Assembly: GCA_945952025.1 (NCBI GenBank)
Contig: CAMFGW010000011.1
Coordinates: 10,377-74,376, forward strand
DNA length: 64,000 nt
Direction: 5' to 3'
DNA from: an uncultured Rhodobacteraceae bacterium
GTDB taxonomy: Bacteria > Pseudomonadota > Alphaproteobacteria > Rhodobacterales > Rhodobacteraceae
Below, piece after piece: positions 29,974 to 63,944 of this stretch. The translations under genes were made by a program, and so were the position numbers. Position 1 is the stretch's first letter. The number at the start of each line of letters is the position of its first letter. A model generated the notes under the pieces. The model had not been told where the DNA came from. It saw only the letters and a list, made by a program, of their open reading frames with translations, and did not search any database.

Positions 29974-30061
29974 CGGAGCCCACGCGGCCTTGCCTGACCG
30001 GGTGCCCGCCCCTTAATGTGGCGGCGCCCGGGACGGCCGGGCGCCCCTTCGCAGGTAGCCC

Positions 30062-30796
30062 ATGGACGACCACGCCCGGACCGAAGAGCCGCTCGATGGA
30101 GCAGAGGGGCCCCGGATCGAGCGCAAGCGCGGCTCGGGCGTCCAGTTCGTCTATGACACATTGCGCGCCGAGATCCTGGACCTGACGCTCGCCCCCGGCA
30201 GCCCGGTCGATGAAATCCAGATCGCCGAACGGCTCGGCATGTCCCGGACGCCGGTGCGCGAGGCGCTGGTGCGGCTTGCCGCCGAAGGGCTGGTCAGCAC
30301 GCTGCCGAACCGCTCGACCATCGTCGCACCCATCGACTTCCTGAACCTGTCGCCCTTCTTCGACGCCCTGACGCTCATGTATCGCGTCACGACCCGCCTT
30401 GCCGCCGATCAACACGAGCCCGCCGACCTGCCCTTGATCCGCGCCCGCCAGGCGGATTTTGAGCGTGCGGCCCTGGCCCGCGATGTCGTCGGCATGATCC
30501 TGACCAATCGCGACTTCCACGTCACCATCGCCGAAGCCGGTCGCAACCCCTACTACACCGCCCTCTTCGTGCGGCTGCTGGACGAAGGGCGGCGCATCCT
30601 GCGGATCTATTATTCGTTCTATCAGGACATCTTGCCACAAGAGTTTATCGCGGAACATGAAGAGATGATCGCCGCCATCGCCGCCCGCGACACCGCCCGC
30701 GCCGACCGCGTGGCGACGGCCCACGCCGACCAGATCGTGCGCCAGATTCAGGCGGTCATTGCCCGGGACCGGCGACAATCTGTGCCGCTCGGCTGA
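30062..30796 (+). CDS. GntR/FCD transcriptional regulator (HypR-like)
   Basis: wHTH SRTPVREAL plus FCD domain (NRDFH..I...GRNPY; EHEEMI). Directly upstream of the hydroxyproline genes. Confidence 0.85.
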   Translation: MDDHARTEEPLDGAEGPRIERKRGSGVQFVYDTLRAEILDLTLAPGSPVDEIQIAERLGMSRTPVREALVRLAAEGLVSTLPNRSTIVAPIDFLNLSPFFDALTLMYRVTTRLAADQHEPADLPLIRARQADFERAALARDVVGMILTNRDFHVTIAEAGRNPYYTALFVRLLDEGRRILRIYYSFYQDILPQEFIAEHEEMIAAIAARDTARADRVATAHADQIVRQIQAVIARDRRQSVPLG

Positions 30797-30811
30797 TTTC
30801 AGTCGACTAAA

Positions 30812-30830
30812 AAAATACTTCCTGTATTTT
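30812..30830. promoter_or_regulatory. Inverted repeat AAAATAC-N5-GTATTTT, candidate GntR operator
   Basis: Perfect 7-bp inverted repeat between the regulator and the DHDPS-family gene, with AGTCGACT at 30801-30808 next to it. Confidence 0.45.
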
Positions 30831-30865
30831 CTGGACAGAATCGAAGCCCCTCACAGGAGACACCG

Positions 30866-31828
30866 ATGAATCCCCAGATCTTCTCCGGCTGCATTCCCGC
30901 CCTTCTGACCCCCTGCGGCCCCGACCGCACGCCGGACTTCGACGCGCTGGTCAAGAAGGGCAAGGAGCTGATCGCCGCCGGCATGTCCGCCGTGGTCTAT
31001 TGCGGCTCGATGGGCGACTGGCCCTTGCTGACCGACGAACAGCGGATGGAGGGCGTCGAGCGCCTGGTCAAAGCCGGCGTGCCGGTTATCGTCGGCACCG
31101 GCGCAGTCAATACCGCGACCGCCGTGGCCCATGTCCGCCATGCGGCCAAGGTTGGCGCGCAGGGCCTGATGCTGATCCCCCGCGTCCTGTCGCGCGGCTC
31201 GTCCGTTTCGGCCCAGCGCGCGCATTTCAAGGCGCTGCTGTCCGCCGCGCCCTCGCTTCCGGCGGTCATCTACAACAGCCCCTACTACGGCTATGCGACC
31301 CGCGCCGACCTCTTCTTCGACATCCGCAAGGACCACCCGAACCTCGTCGGCTTCAAGGAGTTCGGCGGCGCCGCCGACCTGCGCTATGCGGCCGAAAACA
31401 TCACCTCGCGCGACAAGGACGTGATCCTGATGATCGGCGTCGACACGCAGGTCTTCCACGGCTTCGTCAACTGCGGCGCGATCGGCGCCATCACCGGCAT
31501 CGGCAACGTCCTGCCGCGCGAAGTCCTGCACCTGTGCGCGCTGAGCCGGGCGGCCGCGGCCGGCGATGTCGAGGCCCGCGCGCGGGCGCTGGAGCTCGAC
31601 GCGGCGCTGAATGTGCTGTCGTCCTTCGACGAAGGGCCGGATCTGGTCCTTTACTACAAGTATCTGATGACCTTGAAGGGCGAGGCGGCCTATACGCTGC
31701 ACTTCGTCGAAAGTGACGGGCTGAGCGACAGCCAGCGCGGCTATGCCAAGGCGCAGTTCGAACTTTTCACGCGCTGGTATGCCGACTGGTCCAAGCTTCC
31801 GGGCGCCGTGTCGCGCCATGCCGCCTGA
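30866..31828 (+). CDS. DHDPS-family enzyme, probable delta1-pyrroline-4-hydroxy-2-carboxylate deaminase
   Basis: GCIPALLTP, YCGSMGDW, VIYNSPYY and GFKEFGG (Schiff-base Lys) motifs, together with the operon context. Confidence 0.8.
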   Translation: MNPQIFSGCIPALLTPCGPDRTPDFDALVKKGKELIAAGMSAVVYCGSMGDWPLLTDEQRMEGVERLVKAGVPVIVGTGAVNTATAVAHVRHAAKVGAQGLMLIPRVLSRGSSVSAQRAHFKALLSAAPSLPAVIYNSPYYGYATRADLFFDIRKDHPNLVGFKEFGGAADLRYAAENITSRDKDVILMIGVDTQVFHGFVNCGAIGAITGIGNVLPREVLHLCALSRAAAAGDVEARARALELDAALNVLSSFDEGPDLVLYYKYLMTLKGEAAYTLHFVESDGLSDSQRGYAKAQFELFTRWYADWSKLPGAVSRHAA

Positions 31829-33053
31829 GGCGACGGCCGACCTGATCGTCATTGGCGCGGGCGTCGTCGGCCTGTCGGCGGCGCTCGCGGCGCAGGCGCG
31901 CGGGCTCCGCGTCACCGTCATCGACCGCGAAGGCCCCGCCGCCGGCGCCTCGGCCGGCAATGCCGGGGCCTTCGCCTTCACCGACATCTTCCCGCTGGCC
32001 AGCCCCCGCATCATCCGGCAGGCGCCGAAATGGCTTCTGGACCCGCTCGGCCCCCTGACCGTGCCGCCCCGCTACGCGCTGAAGATCGCGCCCTGGATGT
32101 GGCGCTTCTGGCGGGCCAGCCACCCGGCGCAGGTCCAGGCCTCGACCGTCGCGCAGACCGCGCTCATGGACCTGTCGCGGGCCGCGCTTCTTGAGTTTCT
32201 GGAGGCACAGGACCTGACCCCGTTCCTGCGCCGCGACGGCCAGTTGCAGGTCTATGAGGGCGAGCGCGAGTTCCGCCGGAGCCTGCCCGGCTGGGAGGCG
32301 CGCGACAGCGCCGGGATCGAGTTCCGCCATCTGGCGGGGGACGAGATTTCCGAGCTGCAGCCGGGACTTGCCCCCCGTTTCACCCACGCCACCTTCACGC
32401 CGGGCTGGTGGTCGGTCACCGACCCGAAGCTCTACACGCTGGCGCTTGCCGACCGCTTCCGTGCCAAAGGAGGCACCCTGCGGATCATCGAGGCGACGGC
32501 CCTGACCGACAGCGGCGTCCAGACCCGCGACGGCCTGCTGACCGGCCGCGTCCTGCTGGCCGCCGGCGCCTTTTCCCATCGGCTGGCCCGCACCGCCGGC
32601 GTCCGCATCCCGCTCGAAACCGAACGGGGCTACAACACGACGCTGCCAAGCGATGCCTTCGACCTGCGCACGCAGTTGACCTTCGGCGGCCACGGCTTCG
32701 TCGTCTCGCGCCTCTCGACCGGCATCCGTGTCGGTGGCGCGGTCGAACTAGGGGGCCTCGACCTGCCCCCGAACTACGCCCGCGCCGACGCCATGCTGAA
32801 GAAGGCCGCCGCCTTCCTGCCCGGCCTGCGCACCACCGGGGGCACGCAATGGATGGGCTTTCGCCCCTCGCTCCCCGACAGCCTGCCCGCCATCGGGCCG
32901 CTCCCCGGCCTGCCGAACACGCTCTGCGCCTTCGGGCACGGGCACCTTGGCCTGACCCAGTCGGCCGGCACCGCGCGCCTCATCGCGGACCTGCTGACGC
33001 GGCGGGCCCCTGCCCTGAACCTTGCGCCCTTCTCCCCCGCCCGCTTCGGATAG
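31818..33053 (+). CDS. FAD-dependent D-amino acid (D-hydroxyproline) dehydrogenase
   Basis: VIGAGVVG, ASAGNAG, ERGY, WMGFRPSLPDSLPAIG and FGHGHLGLT motifs. Confidence 0.82.
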   Translation: MPPEATADLIVIGAGVVGLSAALAAQARGLRVTVIDREGPAAGASAGNAGAFAFTDIFPLASPRIIRQAPKWLLDPLGPLTVPPRYALKIAPWMWRFWRASHPAQVQASTVAQTALMDLSRAALLEFLEAQDLTPFLRRDGQLQVYEGEREFRRSLPGWEARDSAGIEFRHLAGDEISELQPGLAPRFTHATFTPGWWSVTDPKLYTLALADRFRAKGGTLRIIEATALTDSGVQTRDGLLTGRVLLAAGAFSHRLARTAGVRIPLETERGYNTTLPSDAFDLRTQLTFGGHGFVVSRLSTGIRVGGAVELGGLDLPPNYARADAMLKKAAAFLPGLRTTGGTQWMGFRPSLPDSLPAIGPLPGLPNTLCAFGHGHLGLTQSAGTARLIADLLTRRAPALNLAPFSPARFG

Positions 33054-33057
33054 ACCC

Positions 33058-34059
33058 ATGTCAAACCACGCCTTCCCCTGCATCGACGGCCATACCTGCG
33101 GCAATCCGGTCCGGCTCGTCACCGGCGGCGCGCCGGTCCTGAAGGGCGCGACCATGCTGGAAAAACGCGCGCATTTCCTGGCCGAATACGACTGGATCCG
33201 CACCGGCCTCATGTTCGAGCCGCGCGGACACGACCAGATGTCGGGCTCGATCCTCTACCCGCCGACGCGGGACGATTGCGACGTGGCGGTCCTTTTCATC
33301 GAAACGTCCGGCTGCCTGCCCATGTGCGGGCACGGCACCATCGGCACGGTCACGATCGCACTGGAAAACGGCCTGATCCGGCCCGAAACACCCGGCACCA
33401 TCCGCCTCGACACGCCCGCCGGCCGCGTCGACGTAACCTACCGGCAAGAGGGCCGCTTCGTCGAGGAGGTGCGCCTGACGAACGTCCCCGCCTACCTTCA
33501 CGCCGAGGGGCTGACGGCCGAAGTCGAGGGGCTGGGCGAGGTCGCGGTGGACGTGGCCTACGGCGGCAACTTCTATGCCATCGTCGAGCCGCAGCGCGCC
33601 TTCCGGGACATGGCCGACCACAGCGCGGGCGAACTCGTGGGCTTCAGCCGCAAGCTGCGGGCGGCGCTCAACGAAAAATACACCTTCGAGCACCCCGAAA
33701 TAGCCGCCATCCGCGGCCTGTCGCACATCCTCTGGACCGGCGCACCGCGCCACCCCGAGGCCGATGCCCGCAACGCCGTCTTCTACGGCGACAAGGCCAT
33801 CGACCGCTCGCCCTGCGGCACCGGCACCTCGGCCCGGATGGCGCAACTGGCGGCCAAGGGGCGGCTGAAGGTCGGCGACGATTTCGTCCACGAAAGCATC
33901 ATCGGCTCGCTCTTCAAGGGCCGGGTCGAGGCGGCGGCGGTGGTGGCGAACCGCCCCGCGATCATCCCCTCGATCGCCGGCTGGGCGCGTGTCACCGGAT
34001 TCAACACCATCTTCATCGACGACCGCGACCCCTTCGCCCACGGCTTCGTCGTCGCCTGA
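33058..34059 (+). CDS. 4-hydroxyproline 2-epimerase (proline racemase family, Cys/Cys)
   Basis: IDGHTCGNP, PMCGHGTIG and DRSPCGTGT motifs; both catalytic Cys are present. Confidence 0.88.
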   Translation: MSNHAFPCIDGHTCGNPVRLVTGGAPVLKGATMLEKRAHFLAEYDWIRTGLMFEPRGHDQMSGSILYPPTRDDCDVAVLFIETSGCLPMCGHGTIGTVTIALENGLIRPETPGTIRLDTPAGRVDVTYRQEGRFVEEVRLTNVPAYLHAEGLTAEVEGLGEVAVDVAYGGNFYAIVEPQRAFRDMADHSAGELVGFSRKLRAALNEKYTFEHPEIAAIRGLSHILWTGAPRHPEADARNAVFYGDKAIDRSPCGTGTSARMAQLAAKGRLKVGDDFVHESIIGSLFKGRVEAAAVVANRPAIIPSIAGWARVTGFNTIFIDDRDPFAHGFVVA

Positions 34060-34110
34060 AAGGTGCGCAAACAAGGTCGTCGCCTGACGCCGAAAACAGG
34101 AAGGCTGCGC

Positions 34111-34144
34111 AAACAAAAAGGCCGCGCACCAGGCGCGGCCCTTT
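34111..34144. terminator. Intrinsic terminator between the convergent epimerase and rpsD
   Basis: GGCCGCGC (34120-34127)/GCGCGGCC (34133-34140) stem, with a T-run on the minus strand and CTTT on the plus strand. Confidence 0.7.
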
Positions 34145-34161
34145 CGGTGATCTTCGCCAGA

Positions 34162-34782
34162 TCAGTTCTTGGCGTAGAATTCGACGACGAGGTGCGGTTC
34201 CATCTGCACCGGATAGGGCACGTCGCCCAGCGCCGGCTGGCGCACGAAGGTCGCGGTCATCTTGTTGTGGTCGACTTCCAGGTAGTCCGGCACGTCACGC
34301 TCGGCCAGGCCCACGGCCTCGAGCACGATGGCAAGCTGGCGCGACTTGTCGCGGACGGCGATCACGTCGCCTTCCTTGACGCGGTAAGAGCCGATGTTGA
34401 CCCGCTGGCCGTTCACTGTGACATGGCCATGGTTCACGAACTGGCGGGCGGCAAAGACGGTCGGGACGAACTTGGCGCGGTAGACCACGGCGTCCAGGCG
34501 GCGTTCCAGAAGGCCGATCAGGTTTTCACCCGTGTCACCCTTCACGCGCTCGGCCTCGCCGTAGATCTTGCGGAACTGTTTTTCGGTCAGGTCGCCGTAA
34601 TAGCCCTTCAGCTTCTGCTTGGCGCGCAGCTGCGTGCCGAAGTCCGAGAGCTTGTTCTTCCGGCGCTGGCCGTGCTGGCCGGGGCCGTACTCACGCTTGT
34701 TGACCGGGGATTTGTCGCGGCCCCAGATGTTTTCGCCCATCCGGCGGTCGATCTTGTACTTGGCAGAGGTGCGTTTGGTCAC
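34162..34782 (-). CDS. rpsD: 30S ribosomal protein S4
   Basis: [31 protein letters not shown] and [13 protein letters not shown] motifs. GTG start, AAGGAG SD. Confidence 0.97.
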
Positions 34783-34900
34783 CGCTGATCTCCTTTTGCG
34801 TCTTCAAAAGGGCGTTGTCCTTTCCCCTTTCGGGGCGACAGGCTTCCCCTTGCGGGGTCCACCAACACCAATGATGCCCGGGGCCCAAAGGCCCGGACGG
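34783..34900 (-). ncRNA. Structured 5' leader of rpsD (candidate S4-responsive r-leader)
   Basis: Multi-stem fold with two GNRA hairpins (CCCC-GCAA-GGGG and CCCC-GAAA-GGGG), an enclosing GGUGUUG/CAACGCC stem, and a CCUUUUG/CAAAAGG hairpin covering the SD. Confidence 0.55.
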
Positions 34901-34904
34901 GCGG

Positions 34905-34932
34905 CTTATACAGGGGCGGAAGGGGGAGTCAA
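34905..34932 (-). promoter_or_regulatory. sigma70 promoter of rpsD
   Basis: Minus strand TTGACT (34932-34927)-N16-TATAAG (34910-34905). Confidence 0.7.
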
Positions 34933-34973
34933 GGGCGCCTCGGGGCAAGGCACGGACGGGATCAGGAAACGCC

Positions 34974-35143
34974 CCGCGTTTCCCCCGACCCCCGTGGGAA
35001 CGGTTCCGCTGGACCGTCCGTGTCACAGATCAACGAAGGCCAGCGCCCGCCGATGGCGGGGCGGGCGCTGGCCGATGGCCATTGGGCCACCGGCGGGGAC
35101 AGGGGGGAGAGGACTTCGCATGGCAGGGTCAACGGCCCCTGCC
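34974..35143 (+). repeat. Dispersed palindromic intergenic element, copy A
   Basis: Shares CCGCGTTTCCC...TGTCACAGA...GGCCAGCGCCCGCCGATGGCGGGGCGGGCGCTGGCC...GCATGGCAGGGTCAACGGCCCCTGCC with copies B and C. Confidence 0.88.
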
Positions 35144-35153
35144 CCACCCCGGC

Positions 35154-36182
35154 CTAGCGCGCGCCCCAGGTATCGCTCAGCCGATAGCCCTCCGGCCAGG
35201 GGTCCGAGGGGTCGAGCATGTGCTGGTGGATCCCCGTGATCCAGCCGCGCCCGCTGATTTCGGGCAGGATCGCCGGCACGTCGCCCACCCGGGTCGTCCC
35301 GACGATCCGGCCCGCGAAGGTCGAGCTGATCAGCGACACGGTCGTCAGCCGGTCCGCCCCGCTCATCTGCCCCCGCGCGTGCAAGACCGCCATCCGCGCC
35401 GAAAGCGCCGTCCCGGTGGGCGAGCGGTCGACCTTGCCCGGCTGGATCGCCACCGCCGACCCGGCGCGCAGCTCGTTCCCCTGTCGTGACAAGGGCCCCG
35501 CGAAGAGGCAGAAGGAAAAATGCCGCCAGTCCGGGTTGGTCGGGTGGTGAAAGCCCAGCTGCTCGGTCCCCGCCCGGGTGATCCTTGCCCCGAGCTTCGC
35601 AATGTCATGCGCCTCGTCCGGCGTGAGCTGGAACCCCAGCGCCCGGGCATCGACAAAGACGAAACTGTCACCGCCGAAGGCCGTGTCGACCTTCAGCGTG
35701 CCCAGCCCCTCGACTTCGAGCGTCGCATCGAGTTTCTGCGCAAAGCTCGGCAGGTTCTGGACGAAGATGCGCTCGGCCTTGCCGTCCCGGCACTCCGCCC
35801 GCACCTTCACCAGACCCCCGGGCGCTTCCAGCAGGAACTCGGTCACCGGCTCCTGCATGGGGATGATGCCGCCGTCCAGGAGGACAGTCGAGACGCAGAT
35901 CGAGTTCGAGCCGGACATGGGCGGCGTGTCCTCCGGCTCCATGATGATGAAGGCCGCGGCCGCGCCCAGCGTTTTGGGCGGCACCAGCAGGTTCACATGC
36001 CGAAAGACCCCGCCCCGCGGCTCGTTCAGGACGAAATTGCGCAGGGTCTGATCGCGGGCGATGAAACGGCTCTGTTCCCAGACCGTCTCACCCGGCGGCG
36101 GCGCCACGCCCCCGACGATGACATCGCCGACCTCGCCCTCGGCATGGGCCGAAATCACATGGACGGTGCGGCTGCTGCGCAT
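35154..36182 (-). CDS. Proline racemase-family protein with Ser/Thr catalytic pair, probable trans-3-hydroxy-L-proline dehydratase
   Basis: [19 protein letters not shown] and DRSPTGTA: both canonical Cys are replaced (Ser, Thr). Confidence 0.75.
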
Positions 36183-36489
36183 GGGGGTATCGGTCGATTA
36201 GGGTTGCGGTTAGGCACGCGGACCTTTCTCGCGGGCCTTTTATGTTTGCTATAAAGCCGGGGCGTCGACAGGGGAGTCAAGGGCGAAGGTTGCTACCAGT
36301 ATCAGCCCTGCCACGGAGGGCAGATCGCCTACTTGCAGTCTCCCTCGTCGCGACGATCTGGCGCGCTGTCGGTCGCTGTATACGCGATGCCTGAAGCGTA
36401 CTTACCTAAATTGCCATGTGAAGATCACACACAACTATCAGGCCTTTGAGCCAAAATCACAGCCCGACGGCAAACGCTCGCATTCCACC

Positions 36490-37497
36490 TCATTTATGAG
36501 AAATAGCGTTCTCAAGAAGTTCAACGAAATCCTCTGGATTTGTAAGATAATTTCGATATGAGCTACGGATCGATCGCGGCGTTGACGCCCGAACATACAC
36601 AACGTTCGCGCAGGTTTCGTCGTCAAGCAGCTCTCTTTCCTTTTCAACAGCCCTCGATGCCTTCGTATATCCGTAAATATCCACGGTGTCATCGAACCTA
36701 AATGCAAGCACTGTATGTTGTTTAATGTTGCTGACATCGCCTTGCTCCCGAAGTCGAGCGAGCCGATCCAGCAGGCCAATTTTGCCTTCAAGCTCCCGAA
36801 ATTCCGCAAGTAGCTCATCATCCGAAATATCTGGGAGGCAACTGCGCATACCCTCGTGATATCTGGCAATAAGTTCACTCGCCAGACTGAAGAATCTTCC
36901 GTATTCGCTGGTCCCGTCCTCGAATTTAATTCGCGTGTCCGAAACGAGGTCAGCGATCTCCACCGCAGTAGCCCATGCGTGTTGTGCGCTGGTTCTTAAT
37001 TGAACCTCTATCTTAAGGCCTCTGAGGTCCGCTCTATCACCGGCCGATGGCGAGTAGCCATAAACATAGTGCACTCCACGATAGCCAGATAGTTTTGGGT
37101 TGGCGATATAGTCATATTTTTCTGGATCATAGAGAAGCTTATGACGGGCCCTGCTCCTATGTTCCAAGTAGCCCCTAAATTCATTTAACGTGTCGATGGT
37201 TGGAAATATCAACCTGCACCCACCGAGGTCATGCATCGTTGATGCATCTTTTGCACGACCAGTTATTATTTTGTCGAGCAAGGTATCGCGACGCTTTAGC
37301 CGCTGCGCAGGTGCCAGCCCAGTAAACTCAAGGGAGGGCTTCCGCAACCACATTGCAATAGCCGAAAGAGGTCGAAGATGCGCTCTGCGCCAGTCGTCCA
37401 ATATCTCCAGATCCGCCCTTGCCACCTTCGATACCGATCCGGCACGGGCAGCATTCTTGCCAGCAGTCCTAACTGAATTTTTGGTAGGAAGACTCAT
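36490..37497 (-). CDS. RelA/SpoT-domain small alarmone synthetase-like protein, CapRel-type fused toxin-antitoxin
   Basis: AQRLKR (aa64-69), MHDLGGCR (88-95), SGYRGVH (137-143), IEVQLRT (163-169), QHAWATAVE (172-180), and C-terminal NVVYV...SYRNY (YxxY at 314-317). GC ~40-50% in lines counted by eye versus ~70% around it. Confidence 0.8.
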   Translation of the reverse strand: MSLPTKNSVRTAGKNAARAGSVSKVARADLEILDDWRRAHLRPLSAIAMWLRKPSLEFTGLAPAQRLKRRDTLLDKIITGRAKDASTMHDLGGCRLIFPTIDTLNEFRGYLEHRSRARHKLLYDPEKYDYIANPKLSGYRGVHYVYGYSPSAGDRADLRGLKIEVQLRTSAQHAWATAVEIADLVSDTRIKFEDGTSEYGRFFSLASELIARYHEGMRSCLPDISDDELLAEFRELEGKIGLLDRLARLREQGDVSNIKQHTVLAFRFDDTVDIYGYTKASRAVEKERELLDDETCANVVYVRASTPRSIRSSYRNYLTNPEDFVELLENAISHK

Positions 37498-37504
37498 AGA
37501 ACCC

Positions 37505-39769
37505 TCACCCGCACTTCGAATACCCGCAGTTCGGGCAGGTCATGCAGCCCTCGATCTTCTGCAGGCCGAACTGGCCGCAGCTTGGGCAGGCCGGCCCGCG
37601 CGGCATCTCGCCAACCGCGACCGCGACGGCCTTGGGGTCGGACTTCAAGCCCATCCCCTCGCCCTTCAGGAAGCCGATCGCGATCATGTGGCGCTCGATC
37701 ACGCCGCCGATCGCCGCGAGGATCGAGGGGATGTAGCGCCCCTCCATCCAGGCGCCGCCGCGCGGATCGAAGACGGCTTTCAGCTCTTCGACGACGAAGC
37801 TCACGTCGCCGCCCCGCCGGAACACGGCCGAGATCATGCGCGTCAGCGCCACCGTCCAGGCGTAATGCTCCATGTTCTTCGAGTTGATGAAGACCTCGAA
37901 CGGCCGCCGGTGGCCGCCCTGCACAATGTCGTTGATCGTGAGGTAGATCGCATGTTCGCTGTCCGGCCACTTCAGCTTGTAGGTCGCCCCGTCCAGCGCC
38001 TGCGGCCGGTCGAGCGGTTCGGACAGGTAGACGACCTCGGCGCCCTGATCCGCCTCGGGCGCGCGGTCGGCGCCCTCGCTCACGGTCAGCACGCTTCCGG
38101 TGACGGCATTCGGCCGGTAGGTGGTGCAGCCCTTGCAGCCCTGGTCCCAGGCGGCGAGGTAGACATCCTTGAAGGCCTCGAACGAGATGTCCTCGGGGCA
38201 GTTGATGGTCTTCGAGATCGAGCTGTCGACCCAGCGCTGCGCCGCCGCCTGCATCTTCACATGGTCAAGGGGCGGCAGGGTCTGGGCGTTGACGAACGTG
38301 TCCGGCAGGGGCGCGTCGCCATGAAGCTCGCGCCAGAGGTGGACGGCATAATCGACCACCTCTTCCTCGGTCCGGCTGCCGTCCTTCTGCAGGACCTTGC
38401 GGCTGTAGGCATAGGCAAAGACCGGCTCGATCCCGGAACTGACGTTGCCCGCGAGCAGGCTGATTGTCCCCGTCGGTGCAACAGACGTGAGCAGAGCATT
38501 GCGGATCCCGTGTTCCCTGACCGCCTCGCGCACGTCGGCATCCATCCCCTTCATCGTGCCCGATTGCAGGAACTTCACGGCATCGAACAGCGGGAAGGCG
38601 CCCTTTTCCCGCGCCAGGTCGACCGAGGCGAGGTAGGCCGCCCGCGCGATCCGCTTCATCCAGCCCTCGGTCGCCGCCGCCGCCTCGTCCGAGCCATAGC
38701 GCAGCCCGATCATCAAAAGCGCGTCGGCAAGCCCCGTGACCCCCAGCCCGATGCGCCGCTTGGCATCCGCCTCGCGCTTCTGTTCGTCCAGGGGAAAGCG
38801 GCTCTCGTCGATCGTATTGTCCATCATCCGCACGGCGACGCGCACCAGGTCGTCCAGCGCCCCGGCGTCCAGATGCGCCTTCGGCCCGAACGGATCGCGC
38901 ACCAGCCGCGCCAGGTTGAGGCTGCCCAGTAGGCAGGCCCCATAGGGCGGCAGGGGCTGTTCGCCGCAAGGGTTGGTGGCCGCAATCTCTTCCGCATACC
39001 AGAGGTTGTTCATCCGGTTGATGCGGTCGATGAAGATCACGCCGGGTTCGGCATAGTCGAAGGTCGCGCGCATGATCTTGTTCCACAGATCGCGCGCCGG
39101 CAGCGTGCGGTAGACCCGGCCCCCGTACTGCAGGTCCCAGGGCCCGTCGGCCTTCACCGCCGCCATGAACGGGTCGCTTACCAGGACCGAAAGGTTGAAC
39201 ATCCGCAGCCGCGCCGGGTCCTGCTTGGCCTCGATGAAAGCCTCGATGTCGGGGTGGTCACAGCGCATGGTCGCCATCATCGCGCCCCGGCGCGAGCCCG
39301 CCGACATGATCGTACGGCACATCGCATCCCACACGTCCATGAAGCTGAGGGGGCCGGAAGCGTCGGCGGCCACCCCCCTGACCTCGGCCCCGCGCGGGCG
39401 GATGGTCGAGAAGTCGTAGCCGATGCCGCCGCCTTGCTGCATGGTCAGCGCCGCCTGCTTCAGCGCCTCGAATATGCCCGCCATGCTGTCGGGAATGGTT
39501 CCCATGACGAAACAGTTGAAGAGCGTCACCGACCGCCCCGTGCCCGCCCCGGCGATGATCCGGCCCGCGGGCAGGAACTTGAAGCCCTCGAGTGCCGCAT
39601 AGAAGCGCGGCTCCCACGCCGCCGGGTCCGCCTCGGGCGCGGCGAGCGCGCGGGCGATGCGGCGCCAGGTATCCTCGACCGTGCGGTCGACGGGCGTGCC
39701 GTCCGCCTGTTCCAGCCGGTATTTCATGTCCCAGATCGATTGGGCGATGGGGGCGACGAAGGCTGACAT
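37505..39769 (-). CDS. nrdJ: Class II (adenosylcobalamin-dependent) ribonucleotide reductase
   Basis: FLPAGRI, LFNCFV, GGGIG, SRRGAMM, ATNPCGEQPL, SVAPTGTISL and KGCTTYR motifs, plus a C-terminal CPSC..CPNC Zn ribbon. Confidence 0.95.
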   Translation of the reverse strand: MSAFVAPIAQSIWDMKYRLEQADGTPVDRTVEDTWRRIARALAAPEADPAAWEPRFYAALEGFKFLPAGRIIAGAGTGRSVTLFNCFVMGTIPDSMAGIFEALKQAALTMQQGGGIGYDFSTIRPRGAEVRGVAADASGPLSFMDVWDAMCRTIMSAGSRRGAMMATMRCDHPDIEAFIEAKQDPARLRMFNLSVLVSDPFMAAVKADGPWDLQYGGRVYRTLPARDLWNKIMRATFDYAEPGVIFIDRINRMNNLWYAEEIAATNPCGEQPLPPYGACLLGSLNLARLVRDPFGPKAHLDAGALDDLVRVAVRMMDNTIDESRFPLDEQKREADAKRRIGLGVTGLADALLMIGLRYGSDEAAAATEGWMKRIARAAYLASVDLAREKGAFPLFDAVKFLQSGTMKGMDADVREAVREHGIRNALLTSVAPTGTISLLAGNVSSGIEPVFAYAYSRKVLQKDGSRTEEEVVDYAVHLWRELHGDAPLPDTFVNAQTLPPLDHVKMQAAAQRWVDSSISKTINCPEDISFEAFKDVYLAAWDQGCKGCTTYRPNAVTGSVLTVSEGADRAPEADQGAEVVYLSEPLDRPQALDGATYKLKWPDSEHAIYLTINDIVQGGHRRPFEVFINSKNMEHYAWTVALTRMISAVFRRGGDVSFVVEELKAVFDPRGGAWMEGRYIPSILAAIGGVIERHMIAIGFLKGEGMGLKSDPKAVAVAVGEMPRGPACPSCGQFGLQKIEGCMTCPNCGYSKCG

Positions 39770-40411: not shown

Positions 40412-40604
40412 CCGCGTTTCCCCCTGCCGTGTGGGAACGTCTCCGCTGGACCGCCCATGTCACAGAACCAACAAAGGCCAGCGCCTGCACCGGTGGGCGC
40501 GGAAGCGCCCGCCGATGGCGGGGCGGGCGCTGGCCGATGGCCTTTGGGCAATCGGCGGGGACAAAGGGCAAAGCCATCGCATGGCAGGGTCAACGGCCCC
40601 TGCC
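40412..40604 (+). repeat. Dispersed palindromic intergenic element, copy B (internal ~24-bp insertion)
   Basis: Homologous to 34974-35143, with extra TGCACCGGTGGGCGCGGAAGCGCC inside the left arm of the main hairpin. Confidence 0.88.
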
Positions 40605-63775: not shown

Positions 63776-63944
63776 GGCAGGGGCCATAGACCCTGCCATG
63801 CGAAGGCTTTGCCTTTGGTCCCCGCCGATGGCCCCAAAGGCCATCGGCAAGCGCCCGCCCCGCCATCGGCGGGCGCTGGCCTTTGTCGGTCTGTGACACA
63901 GGCGGCCCAGCGGCGGTGCCCCGCTGCGGGCGCGGGAAACGCGG
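63776..63944 (-). repeat. Dispersed palindromic intergenic element, copy C (inverted)
   Basis: The reverse complement matches copies A and B, including TGTCACAGA, the GCGCCCGCC/GGCGGGCGC hairpin and GGCAGGG-N-CCCTGCC. Confidence 0.88.

Follow-up and report, generated by a model that had tools for sequence, protein, structure and literature searches.

A CapRel-type fused toxin-antitoxin gene directly behind nrdJ in the genome of an uncultured Rhodobacteraceae bacterium

Described systems and the locus under study

The fused toxin-antitoxin CapRel-SJ46, known from Salmonella phage SJ46 and from E. coli prophages (PDB 7ZTB, 9ERV; PMC9712102, PMC11578894), is the closest described system to a gene located at positions 36490-37497, minus strand, of a 64,000-nucleotide stretch of contig CAMFGW010000011.1 (hereafter the window) from an uncultured Rhodobacteraceae bacterium. 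Both code for one polypeptide composed of an N-terminal toxSYNTH domain, helical anchors, a C-terminal pseudo-zinc-finger domain (pseudo-ZFD) and a helix carrying a YXXY motif. They match the same PADLOC model (PDC-S33), superpose over their full length (TM 0.82) and share the adenine-coordinating arginines, the G-loop tyrosine and the YXXY tyrosines; both lack a partner gene and have relatives that are carried by prophages. Unlike CapRel-SJ46, the protein of the window is 38 residues shorter and has a partly changed interface, its pseudo-ZFD and its equivalent of helix alpha9 are relatively conserved rather than hypervariable, and its gene is a chromosomal, promoterless copy placed behind nrdJ and outside any prophage.

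Three other groups of enzymes are relevant for comparison. Bicistronic toxic small alarmone synthetases (toxSAS), namely FaRel2/ATfaRel2 (PDB 8PU3), PhRel2 and the actinobacterial CapRel with a Phrann Gp30-type antitoxin, have in common with this protein the toxic RelA/SpoT synthetase fold and, by analogy, probably a role in translation arrest and abortive infection; their antitoxin is encoded by a separate gene, whereas here it is fused, no neighbour is conserved and the fold match to FaRel2 is weak (TMq 0.29). PANGU type I (Pag1A, a nucleoid-protein sensor, and Pag1B, a GRel toxSAS; bioRxiv 10.64898/2026.04.06.716658) likewise combines a toxSYNTH domain with a C-terminal regulatory domain. 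However, it depends on an activator encoded next to it, assembles into an inert tetramer and synthesises pppGpp, and its C-terminal domain is an acidic DNA mimic, in contrast to the CapRel pseudo-ZFD with YXXY found here; no partner gene accompanies the gene of the window, and the adjacent, co-evolving nucleoid-associated protein gene typical of PANGU was not found, the flanking genes being nrdJ and a proline-racemase-family gene. Finally, the housekeeping small alarmone synthetases (SAS) RelQ/SAS1 and RelP/SAS2 (PDB 5DEC, 6FGK, 6EWZ) share the catalytic fold and the motifs RxKxxxS, GYRxxH and EvQxRT. These are non-toxic, vertically inherited proteins with one domain and about 210 aa, whereas the present protein has a fused, putatively autoinhibitory domain and a patchy, horizontal distribution.

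Family assignment and predicted structure

The gene and the parts of its product are as follows.

36490-37497, minus strand: CapRel-type toxSAS gene, a fused toxin-antitoxin (ORF of 335 aa plus stop; PADLOC, PDB-profile and Foldseek matches)
36853-37497, minus strand: toxSYNTH (RelA/SpoT synthetase) domain, aa 1-215 (Pfam PF04607 and residue mapping onto CapRel-SJ46)
36733-36852, minus strand: helical linker, equivalent of anchor 1, aa 216-255 (DSSP helices 226-240 and 242-252)
36583-36732, minus strand: pseudo-zinc-finger-like antitoxin/sensor core, aa 256-305 (AlphaFold2 topology; aligned to residues ~283-341 of 7ZTB)
36547-36558, minus strand: putative YXXY autoinhibition motif, Y314-R-N-Y317 (aligned to Y352-P-N-Y355 of CapRel-SJ46)

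An earlier reading of the DNA letters, made without database searches (the original prediction), had proposed a fused toxSAS toxin-antitoxin of CapRel type, and every available sequence and fold test supports this proposal. Indeed (i) PADLOC model PDC-S33 matches the protein at full length (aa 5-332; 2.7e-80, 268 bits), and the solved CapRel-SJ46 chain, searched with its sequence as it stands in the PDB alignment, matches the same model (6.6e-86, 287 bits), so that PDC-S33, of which no mention was found in the literature searched, is in effect the family model of fused CapRel; (ii) a search of the PDB with the single sequence returned 7ZTB and 9ERV at 3.6e-27 over aa 20-243, and the profile of an alignment of 62 family members (A1), which is also the source of the conservation counts and of the structural model given below, matched both chains at 8.5e-49 from end to end (residues 14-370), C-terminal domain included, with AYRNY paired to AYPNY; (iii) the AlphaFold2 model built on A1 is confident (pLDDT 88.6, pTM 0.81), and its best full-length Foldseek matches are 7ZTB (TM 0.82/0.81; 'Salmonella tRNA pyrophosphokinase CapRel') and 9ERV (0.78; 'CapRel bound to Bas11 Gp54'). 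Across subfamilies, the profile and structure comparison thus places CapRel closest, with far weaker matches to FaRel2 and to the housekeeping SAS1, SAS2 and RelP, which cover the N-terminal half only (TMq 0.34-0.43). Identity to CapRel-SJ46 amounts to 34% in the catalytic domain and to about 25% overall, and the NCBIfam match to YjbM is weak, at 33 bits where the cut-off is 320. Computation can hardly make membership firmer, and the gene adds a new member to a family that is already known and catalogued.

The motifs read in the original prediction are all present, namely RLKR (aa 66-69), DLGGCR (90-95), GYRGVH (138-143), EVQLRT (164-169), QHAWATAVE (172-180), NVVYV (298-302) and YRNY (314-317); only the spacer between the last two was miscounted, being 11 residues long and not 12. 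The absence of a hydrolase domain was also confirmed, as the Pfam scan yields RelA_SpoT alone (PF04607, 8.4e-15).

In CapRel-SJ46, R79 and R116 coordinate the adenine, Y155 belongs to the G-loop, Y352 and Y355 form the YXXY motif, and A77, V338, L339, A341 and A351 are interface residues (PMC9712102). In pairwise and profile alignments, the adenine-coordinating pair corresponds to R66 and R95 and the G-loop tyrosine to Y139, while the YXXY tyrosines correspond to Y314 and Y317. Among the interface residues, A77 and V338 are kept (A64 and V300), and L339, A341 and A351 are changed (Y301, R303 and S313, respectively). R66, R95, Y139, A64, V300, Y301, R315, N316 and Y317 are invariant in 62/62 sequences, and Y314 is kept in all but one of them (61/62). 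Conservation thus extends to the catalytic machinery and to the plug, while part of the scaffold interface has residues specific to this family. In the model, the core of the pseudo-ZFD consists, according to DSSP, of strands 261-267 and 272-277, helix 280-291 and strand 296-303, followed by helices 307-318 and 324-333, which is the same beta-beta-alpha-beta arrangement as in CapRel-SJ46 (PMC9712102). A single cysteine, C296, is found in the C-terminal domain, which accordingly has no Cys4 set. The net charge is positive both in the N-terminal helices (+6) and in the catalytic core (+5).

The original prediction had placed a variable sensor at about aa 250-300, which the alignment does not support. 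Within the close clade, aa 256-305 have an entropy of 0.84, near the value of 0.77 for the catalytic core, and the lowest value, 0.44, is that of the YXXY helix. For the linker (aa 216-255) the entropy is 1.29 and rises to 1.8 at aa 221-235, and the most variable part of the C-terminal half is about aa 211-245; the other variable stretches of the family are aa 11-35, aa 101-125 and the last helix. Helix alpha9, which is the hypervariable Gp54-binding site of CapRel-SJ46 (PMC11578894), has its equivalent at about aa 248-257, where the present family is conserved. Besides, the pseudo-ZFD/YXXY region (aa 278-321; window 36535-36666) weakly matches the PADLOC candidate PDC-S05 (E 0.0013, model of 104 positions), which may be a free-standing, antitoxin-like relative of this region.

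Foreign composition, distribution and single-gene status

The CapRel-type gene is an intact ORF of 335 aa that starts with ATG. As noted in the original prediction, its GC content is far below that of its flanks (0.496 versus 0.687), and the difference at third codon positions is larger still (GC3 of 0.48, versus 0.90 in the adjacent nrdJ). The tract from about 36400 to 37499 that holds the gene is the sole low-GC patch of the 64-kb window, and it comprises the following non-coding part, in which no terminator-like site was detected on the minus strand.

36400-36489, minus strand: low-GC non-coding 3' tail of the acquired segment, about 90 nt (GC profile in 50-nt steps; the short ORFs there are spurious)

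Both junctions of the gene are spanned by metagenome contigs of independent studies, i.e. 35900-37560 without a difference (X1), 35922-37871 (X2) and 37145-37544 (X9), so that the arrangement of the CapRel-type gene and nrdJ is not an assembly artefact or a chimera. The same stretch is present in metagenomes from freshwater, fish gut, activated sludge and sludge, obtained in several independent studies.

None of 15 other species of the genus carries the gene, and of 40 relatives nearly all lack it as well. Matches to its product were found in the genomes of 210 species. The closest relatives (64-76% identity) belong to Rhodobacterales/Paracoccaceae genomes and to Xanthomonadales (Dokdonella, Xanthomonas); the predicted divergent alphaproteobacterial CapRel is thus a CapRel, and its clade is not restricted to Alphaproteobacteria. 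A larger group, at 35-44% identity, extends across Alpha-, Beta- and Gammaproteobacteria; Acidobacteriota, Gemmatimonadota, Bacteroidota and Leptospira contribute single cases. Moreover, 37 relatives lie on viral or prophage contigs. GC content is below that of the flanks in nearly all loci, typically by 0.10-0.25, and low GC is therefore a property of a mobile family and not of this window. The CapRel-type gene is recently acquired foreign cargo that was transferred horizontally.

When the ORFs lying up to 2.5 kb away to each side were grouped into clusters over about 85 loci, no conserved partner gene was found: no neighbour cluster occurs in more than 6 loci, and the one that reaches this number looks like generic ABC-type paralogues. 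The 300-bp gap downstream of the gene in the window contains no plausible small ORF, only spurious short ones. With flanks made of housekeeping and catabolic genes, this agrees with the predicted stand-alone gene in the core chromosome.

An RcGTA-like gene transfer agent (GTA) cluster is encoded elsewhere in the genome (G000:C4:11000-29000), with a large terminase, a portal, an HK97-type capsid, a tail tube, GTA-gp10 and a GTA_TIM/Rcc01698-like gene; it contains the only capsid gene of PF05065 (HK97-type) in the genome. No link between this capsid cluster and the CapRel-type gene was found, most hosts of the family fall outside the groups known for RcGTA, and a GTA capsid as the trigger of the CapRel-type protein is pure speculation.

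Junction with nrdJ and expression signals

The upstream side of the junction comprises the following features.

37505-39769, minus strand: nrdJ, class II (B12-dependent) ribonucleotide reductase (Pfam Ribonuc_red_lgC 1.2e-123, and TSCPD)
37498-37507, minus strand: nrdJ stop codon TGA and the 7-nt spacer GGGTTCT (sequence reading)

The DNA of nrdJ is 82-89% identical to that of congeners. The ATG of the CapRel-type gene lies 7 nt past the nrdJ stop, and the TGAGGG at the end of nrdJ provides a GAGGG site, similar to a Shine-Dalgarno sequence, 4 nt before this ATG. The closest congener (L003) has the same TGAGGG behind its nrdJ; the foreign DNA therefore starts within about 5 nt of the ATG and borrows the GAGGG, which is native, for ribosome binding. 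On the minus strand, nothing resembling a promoter or a terminator was detected between the two genes, which, together with the 7-nt distance, makes co-transcription with nrdJ most likely.

Two candidate traces of the insertion were rejected. A 23-nt identity between the nrdJ 3' ends of the window and of Dokdonella was considered as a recombination anchor; it encodes the conserved GYSKCG* terminus, the nrdJ 3' end of the window is 89% identical to that of a congener, and there is no evidence of an imported tract. A search for target-site duplications or terminal repeats at the ends of the insert gave only short repeats at chance level (for the D5 pair the score is 22, whereas shuffled sequences reach up to 29). 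Congeners offer no clean empty site for comparison, as synteny downstream of nrdJ is not conserved among them (tgt, small secreted protein, GMC oxidoreductase, rpsD), and only the 5' junction can therefore be placed.

The only metatranscriptome with matching words, from wastewater (run X21), yielded two exact 151-nt contigs within the gene (37193-37502), which span its 5' third and end at the nrdJ stop codon; this is weak evidence of expression.

Genomic neighbourhood and the variable spot behind nrdJ

No integrase, transposase or other defence gene was found within about 9 kb on either side of the CapRel-type gene. These flanks hold a hydroxyproline-type cluster with two proline-racemase paralogues, rpsD, nrdJ, DUF1489, an inositol monophosphatase and a glycosyltransferase. 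The hydroxyproline-type catabolic cluster (30059-36182) encodes a GntR regulator, a DHDPS-like protein, an FAD oxidoreductase and the two proline-racemase-family paralogues, between which it is interrupted by rpsD.

The spot behind nrdJ varies within the genus. In one species nrdJ is followed directly by tgt (G004), in another by a small secreted protein gene and then tgt (G010), and in a third by a convergent GMC oxidoreductase gene (G009); the source genome has the CapRel-type gene there. In a sister species (G007), a low-GC abortive-infection gene of the HEPN_AbiU2 type (PF18734, 7e-10) and of about 245 aa (L006:2462-3199, plus strand), which has no PADLOC hit, stands right after the nrdJ stop, ahead of the same small protein gene as in G010. 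Furthermore, in metagenomes X1 and X9 other strains join the nrdJ stop to a different sequence of lower GC (loose ends at 37500-37504), which is further cargo at the same spot.

A dispersed, G+C-rich intergenic repeat of about 170-190 bp was also observed, at 34980-35143 and 40417-40604, with another copy near 63776-63943 and a shorter variant of about 100 bp; at least 58 copies, at 74-94% identity, are spread over the contigs of the genome. Two of them bracket the block formed by a proline-racemase gene, the CapRel-type gene, nrdJ and DUF1489. As direct repeats (165-190 bp), these two copies had been candidates for the boundaries of an island, which is ruled out by the genome-wide dispersal. 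The Rfam scan of the window returned no family at threshold, the repeat included. This repeat is possibly of MITE or REP type, and it could help to explain why gene order around nrdJ is scrambled.

Housekeeping genes upstream of family members

The position behind nrdJ has parallels in the family. A Dokdonella homologue (67% identity) is directly behind a split class II ribonucleotide reductase (RNR), and another family member stands behind the B12-dependent IcmF. Of some 54 loci in high-GC hosts, 11 show a host-type gene in the same orientation whose end is less than 200 bp upstream of the family member; these genes are distributed as follows.

RNR: 4 loci (nrdJ of the window, Dokdonella nrdJ, B12-RNR of an alphaproteobacterial metagenome-assembled genome, Luteimonas nrdB)
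lepA: 3 loci
icmF, aconitase, enolase and hemY: 1 locus each

Family members thus often end as tail-end passengers of conserved housekeeping operons. Loci with a family member 3-150 bp behind a co-oriented housekeeping gene include L069, L072, L042, L043, L096, L118, L129, L090, L053, L015 and L101, the upstream genes being B12-RNR, nrdAB, lepA (several), aconitase, enolase and icmF (twice). The lepA cases probably represent one lineage, the LepA of the metagenome loci considered below being 82-86% identical to the earlier one.

In Dokdonella fugitiva (L009:1530-5955), the RNR is split: between its catalytic part (715 aa) and its TSCPD part (265 aa) lie two ORFs (180 aa and 129 aa) without a Pfam match, which may be a mobile insertion into nrdJ; the CapRel homologue is found 45 bp beyond.

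RNR-adjacent members represent 4 of about 85 genome loci. The four belong to different subclades, and by a naive expectation their number is far above chance. The first five contexts (nrdJ twice, IcmF once) had hinted at a conserved link to nrdJ or to B12 enzymes as a rule of the family. An independent set of 67 metagenome loci contained no RNR, two or three lepA and one icmF; adjacency to RNR is therefore recurrent, and no family rule. It is conceivable, though we hold it to be unlikely, that the position at the tail of the RNR operon is adaptive and not accidental, an RNR promoter that responds to dNTP shortage and replication stress driving the CapRel-type gene. If so, the level of the sensor-toxin would rise at the onset of infection, since the phage creates such a shortage and stress, and this would account both for the four members behind RNR genes of class II or class I in different subclades and hosts and for the AbiU2 gene at the same spot in the sister species.

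Proposed mechanism and alternative explanations

The reading that we favour, at a probability of roughly 80%, is that the gene encodes a fused tRNA pyrophosphokinase of CapRel type, which would be autoinhibited and released by a phage protein, and which was acquired as cargo and is probably co-transcribed with nrdJ. The mechanism is taken by homology to CapRel-SJ46 (PMC9712102, PMC11578894). The N-terminal toxSYNTH domain would act as a pyrophosphokinase that transfers pyrophosphate from ATP to the 3' CCA end of tRNAs, whereby translation would stop. In the uninfected cell, the C-terminal pseudo-zinc-finger is predicted to fold back, so that the YRNY helix (Y314, Y317) would plug the adenine pocket between R66 and R95. 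A phage protein bound to the C-terminal part would hold the enzyme open, and the infected cell would then cease translation, which would abort the infection.

Several points weigh against this reading. Identity to CapRel-SJ46 is low, so that both the substrate and the trigger could differ. The structural model superposes well on the open crystal form of CapRel. The sensor parts (pseudo-ZFD and helix alpha9), hypervariable in enterobacterial CapRel, are fairly conserved here and therefore a poorer fit to an arms-race sensor. Lastly, neither of the two metatranscriptome contigs extends into nrdJ, and carry-over of DNA could explain them.

The main uncertainty concerns the output of the enzyme, as other toxSAS enzymes make (pp)pApp or pppGpp. 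With the same fused and autoinhibited architecture, the protein could target metabolism instead, by producing (pp)pApp or (p)ppGpp and depleting ATP or GTP, as do FaRel, Tas1 and GRel of PANGU. Both kinds of output, tRNA modification and alarmone or nucleotide products, exist among toxSAS enzymes (PMC11782079; bioRxiv 10.64898/2026.04.06.716658), and the catalytic domain is only 34% identical to the tRNA-modifying reference. However, in sequence and in fold the closest solved relative by a wide margin is a tRNA pyrophosphokinase, CapRel, with FaRel2 far behind, and the positive charge of the N-terminal helices and of the core is compatible with RNA binding, which leaves an output of the metabolic type improbable.

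Slimmer still is the chance that the gene is a selfish or decaying fused toxin-antitoxin with no part in phage defence, be it a passenger maintained by addiction or drift or a gene silenced in its present position. Such a fate would suit a single, isolated gene outside any defence island, for which no promoter of its own was detected. Yet the ORF is intact and has kept all functional residues, metagenomes of several studies and habitats show this same allele with these junctions, a toxin and antitoxin on one polypeptide have no obvious route to addiction, and relatives of the same architecture protect E. coli from phages (PMC9712102).

A housekeeping, RelP/RelQ-like SAS feeding (p)ppGpp to the stringent response, as might be read from the RelA_SpoT domain without a hydrolase domain and from the weak YjbM match, is effectively refuted by the extra C-terminal domain of about 120 aa with YXXY, by the restriction of the match with true SAS enzymes to the N-terminal half (TMq ~0.4), and by the absence of the gene from all 15 congeners, its foreign composition and the occurrence of relatives on prophage contigs.

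Implications

With a fused CapRel-type tRNA pyrophosphokinase as the preferred reading, the locus adds a well-supported CapRel-type gene, presumably of defence, from freshwater and activated-sludge Rhodobacteraceae/Paracoccaceae, a group without a known CapRel trigger. Its clade, shared with Xanthomonadales, has an unusually conserved sensor part and could for this reason serve in the search for new triggers. The sole unusual feature of the gene, which is otherwise of modest interest, is its placement 7 bases behind the essential nrdJ without a promoter or a mobility gene of its own.

In summary, a foreign gene of 1.1 kb, with no mobility gene, promoter or partner, has been spliced behind an essential gene to within about 5 nt of its start codon, at a position that in relatives holds other abortive-infection cargo. 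Single-gene defences can thus hide in the core chromosome, beyond recognisable defence islands, where island-based searches would miss them.

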